Shown piece by piece: positions 22,822-58,248 of a stretch of 64,000 bases of DNA. A program made the position numbers and the translations under genes. Under the pieces are notes generated by a model. The model searched no databases. It was given only the letters and a program-made list of their open reading frames with translations, and was not told the DNA's origin. The stretch is taken from assembly GCA_963731735.1 (NCBI GenBank), contig CAVSWO010000002.1, positions 529-64,528 of the forward strand, given 5' to 3'. This DNA is from Candidatus Kerfeldbacteria bacterium (GTDB lineage: Bacteria; Patescibacteriota; Patescibacteriia; SBBC01; CAIJZX01). Position 1 is the first letter of the stretch; each line of letters opens with the position of its first letter.

Positions 22822-22850
22822 TTGACCCGAAGGAAACTTTTCCCTATACT
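22822..22850 (+). promoter_or_regulatory. Promoter TTGACC-N17-TATACT for tRNA-Gln.
   Basis: TTGACCcgaaggaaacttttcccTATACT, 11 nt upstream of the tRNA 5' end. Confidence 0.7.
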
Positions 22851-22861
22851 CGTTCCGTCCT

Positions 22862-22935
22862 TCCGGGATCGTCTAATGGTAGGACGCCAGGTTCTGGCCC
22901 TGGTAATTGGGGTTCGAATCCCTGTCCCGGAGCCA
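22862..22935 (+). tRNA. tRNA-Gln (anticodon CUG), with an encoded CCA.
   Basis: Manual cloverleaf: acceptor TCCGGGA/TCCCGGA, anticodon stem CCAGG/CCTGG with loop TTCTGGC, T-loop GGGGTTCGAATCCC, 3' GCCA. Confidence 0.85.
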
Positions 22936-23100
22936 TAGCGAAAGCGGCCGTCCGAGTGACGGACGTCTTCGCAATCGGGAGTCGGCAGGGATTCGAACGG
23001 GCAGAAGCGACCGAGCAAAGCTCGGGAGCGTCGATGAGCCGCCAGTGGCGGGTCGGCGCTGCCCAGGACAACGAGCCCCGCGAAAGCGGGGTGAGGCGGA

Positions 23101-23119
23101 AATCCCTGTCCCGGAGCCA
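23101..23119 (+). repeat. 19-nt perfect direct repeat of the tRNA-Gln 3' end (AATCCCTGTCCCGGAGCCA), 165 nt downstream of the tRNA.
   Basis: Read directly. The intervening 22936-23100 is GC-rich with hairpins and an inverted GGATTCGAAC motif. Confidence 0.9.
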
Positions 23120-26181: not shown

Positions 26182-26706
26182 TCAAACGCGATAGCGGTAG
26201 ACCACCACCCGGCCCTCGGGTTTCTCCCGGGCTTCCGGTGTCCATCCGGCAATTGAAAAGACTGCCGAAATAATTCGCGTTCCCGGCCGGAGTTCGCGTT
26301 TGAACTTCGGACCCAATTTTTTCATAGCCTCGGGCGTCAAAAAGCAAAATACCACATCGGCTGCCGACAAGTCTTGGTGAAAAAAATCCTGCAGCCGGAT
26401 CGACGCGCGCGTCCGGAGTCCGGCCGCCGCGATTCGCATCCAGGCCGCCAACCAAACTGGCAATGACAGCTCATACCCGATCGCCCGCAGGTTCGGGAAG
26501 CGCTTGGCCGCGGTGAGCAGAATCCGTCCGTCACCGGCCCCTAAATCCACAATCGTTTCGCCGTCCTTGAGCGCGGCCATGGTTAGCATCCGTTCCACGT
26601 CTCGACTGCGGGTTGGAACATACGGTGCCGCCCGCCAGGCACCCCAAGCGGTCGTGATCGCAGACACAACGACCACCAGTAATACGACCAGCCAGATCAG
26701 ACTCAT
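26182..26706 (-). CDS. Class I SAM-dependent methyltransferase with an N-terminal TM helix.
   Basis: IVDLGAGDGRILLTAA motif I. Confidence 0.7.
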   Translation of the reverse strand: MSLIWLVVLLVVVVSAITTAWGAWRAAPYVPTRSRDVERMLTMAALKDGETIVDLGAGDGRILLTAAKRFPNLRAIGYELSLPVWLAAWMRIAAAGLRTRASIRLQDFFHQDLSAADVVFCFLTPEAMKKLGPKFKRELRPGTRIISAVFSIAGWTPEAREKPEGRVVVYRYRV

Positions 26707-29246
26707 GTGCCGCGCGGTTCAGTCATCGGCATCGGAGCCGCCGCCACAGCTCCAAGCTGCGTGCGGGATAAAATTTCTTGTTCGACATAGGCTCGATCTT
26801 TGCCGTACCGTAATCGGGCGTATTCCCGAATCGCTTCAGCCATCCGCGGGTGGCCCGGTTGCGGCGGATAGGTTTGTAAATGAAATGGCGGCGCTTGGGT
26901 ATTATTAATCAGTAACCGGATGTAGGCGGTGTAGCGTTCTTGATTGACCAGGTCGAAAGCCGAGAAGGTCGGCTCAAATTGTTTGGCTAATATTTCGGCA
27001 TCCTCGACACCAACCCGGAAGGCGATCATCGTGCCGACGTTCCCGAGTACCGCTTCTTGCACTTTAGCATCACCAGCTTGGACCAGCTGTCCCATGTATT
27101 GATGGGCCATGGTCAGGTTCAGCCGGTATTTTCGCGCTTCGGATAAAATGGTGGCGATCGAGTCGGTGATAAAATTCTGAAACTCATCCAGGTAGAGATA
27201 GAAGTCCGGCCGCTGGTCTTCCGGCACGTTGGTCCGGGCCAAGGCCGCCATTTGTAACTTCGACACAATAATCAGGCCCAGCAAGTTGGCATTGACTTCG
27301 CCGACTTTGCCTTTGGCCAAATTGACCAGCAGAATTTTTCGGCCATCCATAATCTCCCGGAAGTTAAATCCCGAGCGCGGTTGACCGATGATATTCCGCA
27401 TCATGGCATTTTCCACGAACCGCCCGACTTTCGAAATCAAGTAGCCCAGCATTTCGGATTTATGGAAATCGGAGGTCTTGGCCATTTCCTTTTCCCAGAA
27501 AGCCCGGACGACTGGGTCTTTAACCTTGGCGACCTTGGCTTGCTGAAAAGCTTTATCCGTGAACATCCGCGGAATATCGGCAATCGTACCCGGATGCTCT
27601 TCGTCTTCCATTAGGGTCAGCATGGCATTGCGCATATTGTGTTCGAACATCGGTCCGACCATCTCGGGCGGAAAGAGTTTCATGAAAATCGCAATCATTT
27701 CCTGAACCGCGAAATCTCGCTCCTCCGGCGTTTTCGCTTCGAGCATATTCAAGCCCACCGGCCGTTCGGTATCACCCGGCTCAAACATAATCACATCGTG
27801 CATCCGTTCTTTCGGAATCCCCTCCAAAATATCTTCCACCAGGCTGCCATGCGGATCGACCACGCAGACGCCTTGACCGGACGCAATGTCCTGTTTAGCC
27901 ATCTCGGCCATCAGCACCGATTTTCCGGAACCGGTGGTGCCGACGATGTAGACATGGCGCCGGCGATCTTCCGCCGCCAAGCGAATTTGGTGATCTTCGC
28001 CACGATACAGATTGTGTCCCAGTAAAATGCCCTGGACCGGTAAATCTGCCGGCGCCCCGGCGCGTTTGGCCGCCAGCCATTCAATATTCGGGGCCGGCGT
28101 GTCCGGCAACGGAAAGTGGTATAAGCTGTTGACTTCCTCACTATTGAGAATCATGCCGTTCTGCGGGCGGAAGTGCCGATAGATGAAATCGTGAATCATC
28201 TGGCCGCCGTGAGCAATCGCGCGCGGCTTGAAACCGTTGCCCGAGTCGATGGCCGTAAACTGACTGAAGGCGTTGATAATATTTTCCAGGTGTATCCGCA
28301 CGTTGCGTTCATTCGGTGAAGCGGTCACGATCCGGATGTTGACGTCAAAGCCCGGCTTGCCGGCCTTGTCTTCCAGCGAACGCACCAAGGATTGTTCCAT
28401 CGGCGTTAATTGATGAGCCCCGCCGTATGCGTAGTCTGACTGTTTGGGCGTGGATTTGAGCGAAGCCGTCAGGAATCCGGTCATTGAGCTCCCCGATGTT
28501 TTGGCCGGTTGGCCAGCCTGCATCCGGTGGGCCAGCGCTTTGCCGGCCCGTTGCCAACCGGCCGACTTGGGACGTATCAAGAGTTGGATAGCCGCCCCTT
28601 CGTCTGGCTGCACTTTGCTCATAACATTCGCAATCGCGTAGAGCGGATCGCTTTCAAGTTGCTTGTAGGTCCGAATCGGATAAGCGGCTGGTTTCGTCAG
28701 CCGCATGGAGGTAGCTAAAATATGCGTTTGCGAGGCAAACAGATTATAGTCTACGACTTCCTCAATCTGGGCGTGCGGATACTGAGCTTGAATCTGGAGT
28801 TCAACCAATTGCCGCAGATCGCGCGGGACGCCCAGGTAAAAATGAATTCGCCCGTCGTGCGCGACCAGCTCCAAAGCCAGGTGTCGCGGCGTGCTAAACC
28901 AGAATTGATGCCAAGCTCGCGCCAGCGGGTTGCCGGCTTGATTCGGCCGCAGATTCCCGAGGGTGATAAACAGCGTTTCAAATCCTGCTAAGACTTCTTG
29001 CCACTCCTTATGCTCCAATTCTTTTCGCCAGGATTCTTTGGGTAAGCGCACTTTCAGCACCAAATATTCCAGGGCGGACGGAATCAACCGTTGCCGCTGT
29101 AACCACCAGCGCAATCCAAATACCACCCCAAGCACACCGAGTACTAACCCTAACCCAACCCACAGCCACGTCAATTGCGTAGCGGCTTGATGGGCCGCGC
29201 CAGTCAGCACGTTGGTATCTGGATTAAGACCCTGGGCGAGTAGCAT
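26703..29246 (-). CDS. VirD4/TraG/TraD-like type-IV coupling-protein-family P-loop ATPase (membrane-anchored).
   Basis: N-terminal TMs and Walker A VYIVGTTGSGKS. 847 aa with conjugative-coupling-protein-like architecture. The family call rests on pattern, not on alignment. Confidence 0.55.
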   Translation of the reverse strand: MLLAQGLNPDTNVLTGAAHQAATQLTWLWVGLGLVLGVLGVVFGLRWWLQRQRLIPSALEYLVLKVRLPKESWRKELEHKEWQEVLAGFETLFITLGNLRPNQAGNPLARAWHQFWFSTPRHLALELVAHDGRIHFYLGVPRDLRQLVELQIQAQYPHAQIEEVVDYNLFASQTHILATSMRLTKPAAYPIRTYKQLESDPLYAIANVMSKVQPDEGAAIQLLIRPKSAGWQRAGKALAHRMQAGQPAKTSGSSMTGFLTASLKSTPKQSDYAYGGAHQLTPMEQSLVRSLEDKAGKPGFDVNIRIVTASPNERNVRIHLENIINAFSQFTAIDSGNGFKPRAIAHGGQMIHDFIYRHFRPQNGMILNSEEVNSLYHFPLPDTPAPNIEWLAAKRAGAPADLPVQGILLGHNLYRGEDHQIRLAAEDRRRHVYIVGTTGSGKSVLMAEMAKQDIASGQGVCVVDPHGSLVEDILEGIPKERMHDVIMFEPGDTERPVGLNMLEAKTPEERDFAVQEMIAIFMKLFPPEMVGPMFEHNMRNAMLTLMEDEEHPGTIADIPRMFTDKAFQQAKVAKVKDPVVRAFWEKEMAKTSDFHKSEMLGYLISKVGRFVENAMMRNIIGQPRSGFNFREIMDGRKILLVNLAKGKVGEVNANLLGLIIVSKLQMAALARTNVPEDQRPDFYLYLDEFQNFITDSIATILSEARKYRLNLTMAHQYMGQLVQAGDAKVQEAVLGNVGTMIAFRVGVEDAEILAKQFEPTFSAFDLVNQERYTAYIRLLINNTQAPPFHLQTYPPQPGHPRMAEAIREYARLRYGKDRAYVEQEILSRTQLGAVAAAPMPMTEPRGT

Positions 29247-56377: not shown

Positions 56378-56502
56378 AGCTGTGGATAGTATAGCAAATT
56401 CTCTGACAGTTGGTAATCCGGCGCCCTTGACTTCGGGCAGGTCTGTGATAACCTCCAGTCCGCCATTCCGCCGTTCATTTGACCTTTTCAGGGAGGAATT
56501 CG

Positions 56503-57120
56503 ATGGTTACCTCACCGGCTGTACCCGCCTATCCAGCGATTGGACGTCAGGAGTTCATGGAGTATTTGGAAAGCTTTTTCAGCCCCCGCCAGATGATCAA
56601 GGTCCGGGCGGCCTACGAATTTTCCAAAGCTGGCCACAAGGGTCAGCAGCGGGATGATGGAACTCGGTACTTCGAACACCTAAAGGCAGTCACCTGGATC
56701 GTCATTCATGAGCTCGGTTTCGTGCACCTGGCCACCACCATCACGGCCCTGCTCCACGACATCGTCGAGGATCAACATATCCTAACGCCCGAAAGCATCG
56801 AAATGTTTTTCGGGCTCGAAGCGGCGGTCAACGTCAACCTGTTGACCAAGCATGACGGCGATTCGACCGCCGAGTATCTGTCTCGCATGAAGCGTTCCGG
56901 TCGCTGGCGCGTGATGGTTGTCAAATTGGCCGATCGGCTGCAAAACCTTCGCTCACTCAACGCCTGCAAACCGAGCAAACGCGCTCGGACTATACAGGAA
57001 ACAATTGAACTTTATGGTCCGTTGGCCGAACACCTAACGGACATTGCGCCGCGCAAGTATCGACCGCTGGCGCTAAGTATCCAGCGACTTCTCGAGGATG
57101 AACTCGAGCAACTCCGTTAA
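56503..57120 (+). CDS. HD-domain phosphohydrolase (SpoT/RelA-type HD, small alarmone hydrolase-like).
   Basis: H...HD motif (LLHDIVED) with Rel/Spo HD-domain spacing. SD GGAGGAATTCGATG. Confidence 0.65.
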   Translation: MVTSPAVPAYPAIGRQEFMEYLESFFSPRQMIKVRAAYEFSKAGHKGQQRDDGTRYFEHLKAVTWIVIHELGFVHLATTITALLHDIVEDQHILTPESIEMFFGLEAAVNVNLLTKHDGDSTAEYLSRMKRSGRWRVMVVKLADRLQNLRSLNACKPSKRARTIQETIELYGPLAEHLTDIAPRKYRPLALSIQRLLEDELEQLR

Positions 57121-57211: not shown

Positions 57212-57979
57212 TCAGGCTGCCAGATCTTTACCAGGGCCATTCATCTTAAGGTGCTTGGAGTTTGCTTCCTTTACTTCCCTGTCGTACTTATCACACAACT
57301 CCTCGAATTCTCGAAAGTGGCCATTGTCTTTTCTTAGGGCTTGCAGCGTAAGTGTACTATTCGGGTATTGATCTTTAACAGTGTTGGAAACCAGTGACCT
57401 GAGAAGTGATCCTCCAAGAAACAGACTACGCTCTGGCTCCGGTAGCAATATCATTGAGTTAAAGAAAACAGCATCTACAACTGCCAGTTCCACTCCTAAG
57501 TTAACGGTTCGTGGGTTTGAATGGGCGTCACCAGATCCATACCTTAGGTGGTGCAAGTATTTTCCACTATTATCGCCAAACCAGTGGGCAACCCCGGTGA
57601 TTTCAGGTTCTCCAAAAACCGAATTATATTGTTGTGCCTCGACTAAAAGCTTCTGAATATTATAGCCAAACTCGTTCTTTGCTTCTGTAAATGCAGTTTC
57701 GGACTTACGTTTCACAGTAATAAAAAATTTCAATGATTTTTCCAGTACTTCGATCATCATTTTGTACATTGTGGGAGCTGTGGCATTGGGCTCTGTGTAA
57801 GCAAGAAGCCTTAGTGCAATATAATCTGAATCACACTGCATCCTAAGCGGCGCTGCAAATCCAAACCAGTTCTCTTCGTGTGGCTGCTGTTTTATACTTC
57901 TTGTCATGTAATCAATGCGGCCGTCTTGTTTGAACTCAGCCCTGACCAAGAGAATCAAGTTATAATCGACTAATGTCAT
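57212..57979 (-). CDS. AT-rich (~42% GC) hypothetical protein with an Rx6H (HEPN-like) motif; a candidate horizontally acquired gene.
   Basis: 255 aa; start taken at the internal MTLVDYNLILLV; motif HHLRYGSGDAHSNPRT. Sits beside tRNA-Glu and the 3'-end repeat. Confidence 0.4.
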   Translation of the reverse strand: MTLVDYNLILLVRAEFKQDGRIDYMTRSIKQQPHEENWFGFAAPLRMQCDSDYIALRLLAYTEPNATAPTMYKMMIEVLEKSLKFFITVKRKSETAFTEAKNEFGYNIQKLLVEAQQYNSVFGEPEITGVAHWFGDNSGKYLHHLRYGSGDAHSNPRTVNLGVELAVVDAVFFNSMILLPEPERSLFLGGSLLRSLVSNTVKDQYPNSTLTLQALRKDNGHFREFEELCDKYDREVKEANSKHLKMNGPGKDLAA

Positions 57980-57997
57980 TATGTGTAGGTATTGGTA

Positions 57998-58017
57998 CCG
58001 CCAAGGGGATTCCTTCT
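57998..58017 (-). repeat. 20-nt perfect direct repeat of the tRNA-Glu 3' end (GAATCCCCTTGGCGGTACCA in tRNA orientation), 153 nt downstream of the tRNA.
   Basis: Read directly: plus-strand TGGTACCGCCAAGGGGATTC occurs at 57998 and at 58171. Confidence 0.9.
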
Positions 58018-58170
58018 CCTCCACGACTCGCGACCCGACGGGTTCCCGCTCGTCGCTCCCCCGAAGCCGGGGTTCCTCTCCGAGTGCCACCGGCACTCGT
58101 TTCGGATACCCTTCGAATCCAGGTCTCAATCGCCAGGATGCCCGACCGCGAGGGTCGGCCACTCTGGCGA

Positions 58171-58248
58171 TGGTACCGCCAAGGGGATTCGAACCCCTGT
58201 TACCAGGATGAGAACCTGGCGTCCTAGACCGGACTAGACGATGGCGGC
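58171..58248 (-). tRNA. tRNA-Glu (anticodon CUC), with an encoded CCA.
   Basis: Minus strand GCCGCCATCGTCTAGTCCGGTCTAGGACGCCAGGTTCTCATCCTGGTAACAGGGGTTCGAATCCCCTTGGCGGTACCA; anticodon loop TTCTCAT. Confidence 0.85.

Follow-up and report, generated by a model that had tools for sequence, protein, structure and literature searches.

In the 64,000-nt stretch of contig CAVSWO010000002.1 from a Candidatus Kerfeldbacteria bacterium that was analysed here (the window), tRNA-Gln(CUG) and tRNA-Glu(CUC) were the sole tRNAs identified by ARAGORN and Rfam, and each was followed, on its own strand, by an exact copy of its own 3′ end. The intervening sequence and the copy together form a structured element of about 180 nt, here called a unit, which recurs behind many other tRNA genes and is the subject of this analysis. 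Loci fetched for comparison are cited by number (L136 and so on). The genes, the copies and the one promoter found were as follows:

22822–22850 (+), sigma-70-like promoter, TTGACC-17-TATACT (10 of 12 matches), just 5′ of tRNA-Gln
22862–22935 (+), tRNA-Gln(CUG), CCA encoded (ARAGORN; Rfam, 57.3 bits)
23101–23119 (+), exact 19-nt copy of the tRNA-Gln 3′ end, from A58 to CCA (t3 of the Gln unit)
58171–58248 (−), tRNA-Glu(CUC), CCA encoded (ARAGORN; Rfam, 60.8 bits)
57993–58012 (−), exact copy (20 of 20 nt; GAATCCCCTTGGCGGTACCA) of the tRNA-Glu 3′ end, from G57 to CCA

The copied part of tRNA-Gln comprised its last 19 nt, A58 to A76 (22917–22935), and the copy, lying 165 nt beyond the tRNA 3′ end, was identical to it at 19 of 19 positions. 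The sequence AATCCCTGTCCCGGAGCCA was present exactly twice in the window (22917–22935 and 23101–23119), while none of 100 shuffles contained two or more matches to it when up to three mismatches were allowed; the perfect repeat reported in the original prediction, which was made from the sequence alone, was thus borne out. That prediction had also given the tRNA-Glu locus the same architecture. The order of parts and the design of the 5′ hairpin were indeed common to both units, but their cores differed, the copy was 20 nt long and ran from 58012 to 57993 instead of ending at 57998, and the spacer measured 158–159 nt (165 nt at the Gln locus) rather than 153 nt.

Neither ARAGORN nor Rfam (at gathering thresholds and at E ≤ 10, the latter with chance hits only) found a tRNA, a tmRNA or any other Rfam family over the spacers or the second copies, and the sole match in the tmRNA test was a 9.9-bit tmRNA_permuted fragment inside tRNA-Glu. 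Only the two full tRNAs were called by ARAGORN and by Rfam RF00005, in agreement with the earlier remark that no cloverleaf can be drawn for the second copy; the possibility that covariance models would recognize an ordinary tRNA pseudogene there can be set aside. No recombinase or integrase remnants were found among the flanking genes inspected near either locus, in line with the lack of an integrase first noted at the tRNA-Gln locus. The flanks consist of housekeeping genes, encoding a deoxyhypusine-synthase-like protein, DnaX, GAPDH, TIM and ScpB, together with genes for an HD_4 protein and a glycosyltransferase, and the units themselves are too short to encode a recombinase. The tRNA-Gln promoter was the only promoter-like site on either strand between 22700 and 23350.

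Downstream of the tRNA CCA, the parts of a unit followed one another in the order hairpin (H), inverted complement of the tRNA 3′ end (IC), GC-rich multi-hairpin core (Y) and direct copy (t3). Their positions in the two window units were:

22938–22972 (+), hairpin H of the Gln unit, with two mismatches (A-C and G-A) and a G-U pair, all at fixed positions, and not followed by a T-run
22975–22998 (+), IC of the Gln unit, an interrupted inverted complement of the tRNA 3′ end composed of TCGGGA (22975–22980) and CAGGGATTCGAAC (22986–22998)
22999–23064 (+), core Y of the Gln unit, as given by alignment A2, model R1 and the covariation count (see below)
22999–23004 with 23059–23064 (+), helix P2, GGGCAG paired with CTGCCC
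23065–23100 (+), AGGACAACGAG junction, hairpin P5 (CCCCGC-GAAA-GCGGGG, 23076–23091) and TGAGGCGGA box
58130–58170 (−), hairpin H of the Glu unit, with the internal-loop design of the Gln hairpin
58112–58120 (−), GGATTCGAA box of the Glu unit, complementary to the tRNA T-loop and T-stem (TTCGAATCC)
58013–58111 (−), core of the Glu unit, a second subtype that contains a GUGCCGGUGGCAC hairpin and lacks the GGGCAG/CTGCCC helix

The hairpins and the inverted T-loop-like box described earlier for the Gln spacer were present, the latter as a GGATTCGAAC box at 22989–22998. The longer part of IC, CAGGGATTCGAAC, was the exact complement of tRNA positions GTTCGAATCCCTG (a 13-nt minus-strand match to 22912–22924). 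In the minimum-energy fold of the Gln unit, IC paired with t3 to form a closing helix, P1 (CAGGGAUU with AAUCCCUG, and CGGG with CCCG), so that t3 provided the 3′ strand of P1 plus a free GAGCCA tail. Within it, P2 enclosed the AAGCGA junction, the P3 hairpin (23011–23025), the GAGCGTCG box and the P4 hairpin (23034–23056). The closing helix of the Glu unit was weak, consisting of GGAUUC paired with GAAUCC only. Against shuffles, the Gln unit had a folding z-score of −3.7 and the Glu unit one of about −3.1 (the latter computed on 57998–58170, which omits the last 5 nt of the unit), and in both the plus (tRNA) strand folded better than the minus strand. Comparison of the two units by alignment and folding showed the basal stem of H to covary completely, and a GUGCCGGUGGCAC-like hairpin was common to both subtypes. 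Short mini-hairpin motifs, GCGAAAGC and GCGAAGC, recurred within units: they were found twice in the Gln unit (22938–22947 and 23080–23089) and also in E. coli RtT and at L164, L145, L276 and L298.

Relatives of these units were then collected. One pattern scan of the genome collection was poorly designed and returned mostly a single Collinsella locus, which inspection showed to hold a genuine unit that is often truncated; among the matches listed there were nonetheless many tRNAs whose own 3′ end recurred exactly downstream, 130–190 nt away, namely tRNAs for Ser, Gln, Ala, Tyr and Thr, each with the H-IC-Y-t3 order, on contigs labelled Gammaproteobacteria, Patescibacteria, Spirochaetes, Actinobacteria and Acidobacteria. 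Two other search patterns were abandoned: GGCCG...GGATTCGAA was too unspecific, and tRNA-CCA-N-AGYGGCCG caught mostly a tRNA followed by a class II tRNA (D-arm GTGGCCGAG). A metagenome scan with the Gln-type core motif yielded 58 loci, and for at least 35 of 60 motif hits a same-strand tRNA ended 2–98 nt upstream (partners: Ser, Gln, Glu, Tyr, Asn, Arg, Lys and Ala). Overall, relatives of the Gln unit were located on the tRNA strand, downstream of ten or more tRNA species, and in 22 units with an adjacent partner a 16-nt block of the tRNA 3′ end recurred downstream with no more than two mismatches, and mostly with none.

Thirty-eight units, the Gln unit included, made up alignment A2, from which the covariance model R1 was built. 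Among the fetched loci, R1 had 63 members scoring 31–129 bits. The Gln unit itself scored 110.3 bits at 22979–23119, a value that is not independent since the unit belongs to the training set; it shows the R1 helices P1, P2 (GGGCAG/CTGCCC) and P4 as well as the tandem G-A motif at the P3 base. Hairpin P5 was missing from short family members. The Glu unit is not a Gln-type member, as R1 gave it 14 bits and aligned its two ends alone; the sole relative found for its core was the first unit after tRNA-Arg at L279, which stands in tandem with a Gln-type unit. Family units were 50–70% GC inside AT-rich contigs. In tRNA operons the copy adjoined the next tRNA gene (L275, L262), while elsewhere a terminator followed it, and in a tRNA-Arg/tRNA-Lys operon orthologous units were kept across species (L269, L275, L279). 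Neither a blastn search of plasmid and phage collections with the Gln unit nor a motif scan of viral contigs returned a match. Rfam 15 contains neither the Gln nor the Glu subtype, and the literature searches made found the family described nowhere beyond E. coli RtT.

Some of these loci had a layout worth recording. At L279 (8680–9627), tRNA-Arg(TCG) and tRNA-Lys(CTT) are interspersed with four or more units of at least three core types, and IC and t3 of each unit match the preceding tRNA, its variant T-loop TTCGATC included. The tandem units of L305 and L309 (at about 6480–6742 in L305) end first in an Asn-type tail (AATCCCGCCCTCGGAGC) and next in a Gln-type tail (AATCCCTGTCCCCGAGC), and are not separated by a tRNA. 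A signal recognition particle RNA gene lies directly 3′ of a tRNA-Ser(GGA) unit in a gammaproteobacterium (L145, 4084–4180, minus strand) and in a spirochaete metagenome-assembled genome (L153, 7210–7308, plus strand). Carriers of units also include Aquisalimonas lutea CECT 8326 and a Collinsella aerofaciens isolate (L147) in which the unit is full-length.

Covariation was counted on an alignment of R1 members (60 sequences). Standard pairs occupied 93.6% of cells, compared with 82.1% in shuffles (0 of 500 as high), and changes on both sides of a pair were seen in 165 cells, compared with 55 in shuffles; controls in which the partner was slid along the sequence were paired in at most 45% of cells. 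All six pairs of P4 covaried, as did P1 pairs in the family. G-U pairs were frequent on the tRNA strand (13 and 10 at two positions, for example), and P3 had a conserved 2 × 2 internal loop of G-A/A-G at its base. Conservation extended to elements outside the search pattern, namely the P2 partner CTGCCC and the GAGCGUCG and GAGGCGGA boxes. A tRNA-like gene on the minus strand was considered and rejected, given the better folding of the plus strand, the G-U pairs on that strand and the terminators 3′ of the plus-strand unit.

The tRNA, t3 and IC evolve in concert. The tRNA-Gln locus at L180 is homologous to the window locus from the promoter through t3, hairpin H included, with no flanking proteins common to both. 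Where the 3′ strand of the tRNA T-stem is CCCTG in the window, L180 has CCAGG; both substitutions recur in t3 and are compensated in IC (CAGGG to CCTGG). Likewise, the variant T-loop TTCGATC is matched by a GGGGATCGAA box in L279, and the variant T-loop TTCAATCC by a GGATTGAA box in L190. The three elements are therefore kept matched, likely through selection on P1 combined with template switching in two nested quasi-palindromes (tRNA 3′ end/H/IC and IC/Y/t3), by which the copies would be homogenized. Where the tRNA gene lacks an encoded CCA (L153, L312, L294), the copy follows the gene and not the mature tRNA, indicating that it is made from DNA or from the primary transcript. Reverse transcription of mature tRNA up to position 58 was rejected as the source, because the copy tracks the CCA-less gene, with L277 as the one exception. 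In the tRNA-Glu(TTC) gene of L277/L287 the acceptor stem is followed by ...GGTACAA and in its copy by ...GGTACCA, the sole case in which CCA was found in the copy alone.

The closest known counterpart of the window units is RtT, also called RttR RNA (Rfam RF00391). The tyrT repeat of E. coli has been known since the late 1970s as an unexplained curiosity and, to our knowledge, the sole functional proposal for rtT is modulation of the stringent response. At the tyrT-tyrV locus (L136), tyrT and tyrV are followed by four RtT units scoring 133–137 bits against RF00391, the three units after tyrV having a 178-bp period. The last 19 nt of tRNA-Tyr, AATCCTTCCCCCACCACCA, form the end of each unit, with A58 as the left boundary just as in the window, and the Rfam consensus is closed by an internal GGGGAAGGAU paired to the tRNA-end copy. 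RtT and the window units thus share a position directly 3′ of a tRNA gene and on its strand, a unit length of ~180 nt, an end formed by the last ~19 nt of the tRNA (A58 through CCA), an internal complement of this copy that forms a closing helix (weak in the Glu unit), a GC-rich hairpin interior and the possibility of tandem repetition. They differ in sequence: the window units gave no RF00391 score even at E ≤ 10 (cut-off, 45 bits), R1 did not find the E. coli units at E ≤ 1, the GGGCAG/CTGCCC, AAGCGA and GAGCGUCG elements of the Gln type are absent from RtT, and the long 5′ hairpin H is missing in the E. coli units. A unit after tRNA-Ser(CGA) in Thioalkalivibrio versutus AL2, which ends in the tRNA-Ser tail, scored 51 bits against RF00391 (cut-off 45), showing that RtT is not specific to tRNA-Tyr. 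As R1 also matched this unit weakly (20.9 bits), it links the two models and supports their probable homology, which rests on this one intermediate (L208). An RtT-annotated small RNA is reported to be expressed and cold-induced in T. versutus AL2 (PMC8092127), and expression in E. coli is cited in PMC3318445.

Other RNAs resemble the units in their 3′ end. The tRNA-like domain of tmRNA, minihelix RNAs and YrlA also end in a T-stem strand, an acceptor strand, a discriminator base and CCA, and the box GGAUUCGAAC-GGG appears to resemble the conserved 5′ motif of tmRNA, GGAUUCGAC-GGG. Unlike these, the window units were not called as tmRNA by ARAGORN or as tmRNA or Y RNA by Rfam, their end is specific to the neighbouring tRNA rather than bearing alanine identity, and in units of the family the acceptor 5′ strand is often missing, leaving the tail largely single-stranded.

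That the repeat is a real, non-random, recurring element is an observation; as had been surmised, it is not a chance duplication, a conserved folded module being found at many different tRNAs. With a probability that we put at roughly 0.6, each unit is a predicted structured non-coding RNA module of the tRNA transcription unit, an RtT-like 'tRNA-trailer' RNA. It would be transcribed on the tRNA strand from the tRNA promoter: since hairpin H in the window has no T-run, the unit should be co-transcribed with the tRNA. According to the computed structure and its conservation, the transcript would fold into a multi-helix junction in which the antisense IC pairs, as P1, with the terminal sense t3 (positions 58–76), and it would end in the T-stem strand, acceptor strand, discriminator base and CCA of the partner tRNA. 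Because this end is identical to the tail of the partner, the same 3′-end machinery could mature the unit RNA, which may then act as a mimic or decoy of the partner tRNA 3′ end. Among the three candidates originally put forward (a miniature integrative element, scars of excised or deleted islands, and a co-transcribed small RNA), it is the last that best fits the upstream promoter, the missing T-run, the covariation, the GC-richness and the RtT-like architecture.

Several observations weigh against an RNA of this kind. In many AT-rich relatives the tRNA is separated from the unit by a true terminator (A-run, stem, T-run), and the unit has no visible promoter of its own, so its transcription would need read-through. 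The 64 Collinsella genomes always keep H and IC, but Y and t3 are often truncated, which argues against an essential RNA. In several relatives (L185, L206) the CCA itself is also complemented by IC, a pattern that resembles plain copying more than the design of a free tRNA-like tail. The presence of homologous cores behind ten tRNA species is not accounted for. Conservation of the GGATTCGAA and GGGCAGRAGCGA boxes is partly a matter of ascertainment, because both were in the collection patterns, and covariation alone cannot separate an RNA from a folded DNA site, since G-T pairs and mini-hairpins also form in single-stranded DNA.

The strongest competing explanation draws in part on this last point. 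The units could be small non-autonomous mobile or cassette-like DNA elements at tRNA 3′ ends, mobilized by a recombinase encoded elsewhere, with the folded unit as the recombination site (possibly as single-stranded DNA, like attC) and the t3 repeats as crossover or duplicated target. We regard this as unlikely, yet still as a live alternative. The unit lies between direct repeats of the tRNA 3′ end, homologous cores occur at many tRNA species in distant phyla, the units decay in Collinsella, and the G-T-tolerant helices and recurrent GCGAAGC mini-hairpins fit folded DNA. Tandem arrays of 1.0, 1.2, 1.3, at least 2 and about 4 units were seen, the last being the four E. coli RtT units. A further point in its favour, and one that counts against the RNA interpretation, is that genes lie between a tRNA and a unit with a matching t3 at L284 (1.5 kb) and L291 (5.8 kb), and between two units at L274. 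Integron attC sites and cassettes are similar in being repeated folded sites with conserved ends and variable centres, sometimes with genes between the repeats (L274, L284). The units differ from them in lacking an integron integrase, in forming a multi-branch junction instead of a simple imperfect hairpin, in being anchored to tRNA 3′ ends and in mostly carrying no gene. More generally, no recombinase was found in or beside either window unit, nor in short units generally, and no match was found in plasmid or phage collections. No empty site was present among the 64 orthologous Collinsella loci, where only internal truncations were seen, and units in the tRNA-Arg/tRNA-Lys operon have been retained as orthologues in different species (L269, L275, L279). 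Recombination sites, moreover, do not usually have a conserved multi-helix junction that includes tandem G-A motifs and GNRA loops. For the window genome, the protein database contained no close relative in which an empty site could be sought, the next-best hit being 53% identical. A miniature integrative element, as first suggested, keeps some probability in view of the tandem arrays and the few loci with genes between tRNA and unit. A miniature inverted-repeat transposable element with fixed terminal repeats was rejected, the inverted repeats being specific to the partner tRNA.

The loci with intervening genes deserve description. At L284 (380–2130), a cysteine-rich 215-aa open reading frame (ORF) with its own promoter and no Pfam match has a cassette-like layout, as does a pilin-like gene (N_methyl + DUF4215) at L274 (4217–5993). 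At L291 (1967–8268), a 5.8-kb island lies next to tRNA-Gln(TTG) and its terminator; beyond it come a unit with a t3 still identical in kind to the end of this tRNA and then a second unit. The island encodes a large serine recombinase, a Rep (ORF2/G2P) protein, a DUF2726 protein and a ThsB-TIR protein, and is inserted exactly between the terminator and IC; it is an ordinary serine-recombinase island without t3 repeats on both sides, which weakens its value as an example of mobilization of the unit.

It is improbable that the units are functionless, degenerate remnants of tandem or inverted duplications of tRNA genes that lost the 5′ part, acquired T-loop insertions and underwent unequal crossing-over. 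RtT-type units do keep tRNA-derived blocks, such as CTTCGAccAAGGTTCGA, a match to tRNA-Tyr over the variable arm and the 5′ half of the T-arm; L145, L152 and L208 have similar GGGTTCGA blocks, and copy number differs between loci. However, 93.6% pairing with 165 compensatory cells in 60 sequences is not expected of neutral remnants, nor are GC-richness kept in AT-rich genomes and junction sequences conserved behind ten tRNA species, and the second copies were called neither tRNA nor tRNA pseudogene by ARAGORN and Rfam. Somewhat more doubtful still is an RNA device acting directly on the 3′ end of the partner tRNA, either as a splint or donor of a new 3′ end for tRNAs cut in the tail or T-loop or as a partner-specific decoy against nucleases or nucleotidyltransferases acting on tRNA tails. 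The idea derives from a guide-like box, GGAUU|CGAAC, complementary to both sides of the tRNA G57/A58 junction: together with a unit 3′ end equal to tRNA positions 58–76 it has the layout of a guide and a replacement '3′ exon', so the unit could splint or donate a tRNA 3′ end.

Last, the integration signature (attL/attR) and the scars of excised or deleted islands named in the original prediction are very improbable. It is true that tRNA-targeting integrases leave direct repeats of the tRNA 3′ end that start in the T-loop, and that the units share with such sites a complete tRNA gene and, some way downstream of it, a direct 3′-end copy beginning in the T-loop; but the window units have no recombinase, integrase remnants or cargo, two loci in one window share the ~180-nt length and the hairpin design, the family keeps a constant spacing (about 160–190 nt) and the same conserved core between the repeats at 63 loci on unrelated contigs, and the inverted copy of the tRNA end is not explained by att scars. 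Since the core is both conserved and covarying, deleted-island scars and neutral remnants are alike unlikely. A variant in which an integrase crossover is centred on the T-loop was rejected because the repeat starts in the middle of that loop.

Returning to the tRNA-trailer RNA interpretation, the same design (hairpin, antisense tail copy, folded core, sense tail copy) exists far outside the enterobacteria, with several core types distributed across at least ten tRNA species and contigs labelled Patescibacteria, Gammaproteobacteria, Actinobacteria, Acidobacteria and Spirochaetes. The base-for-base tracking of the partner tRNA points to one of two things, a function dependent on the exact tail or an unusual process of homogenization or copying, and either would be new biology of tRNA loci. 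The sequence set and the covariance model make the old RtT question testable. In addition, island finders that rely on repeats of tRNA fragments will mistake these units for integration scars.

Three ORFs in the window were noted in passing. An 847-aa ORF at 26703–29246 (minus strand) with TraG/VirD4-type coupling-protein domains (TrwB_AAD_bind, T4SS-DNA_transf) lies ~3.5 kb from the tRNA-Gln locus, with dnaX and genes for a NUDIX protein and a methyltransferase in between, and could be a marker of a nearby conjugative element. Convergent to the tRNA-Glu unit and just downstream of it, a 213-aa ORF at 56479–57120 (plus strand) contains an HD_4 domain (RelA/SpoT-type hydrolase fold), a curious neighbour given the proposed effect of rtT on the stringent response, although this may be a coincidence. 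Finally, a 316-aa open frame without a Pfam match at 57212–58162 (minus strand) overlaps the Glu unit (57993–58162). This frame is probably spurious, a product of the GC-rich structured sequence, and could be mis-annotated by a gene caller.

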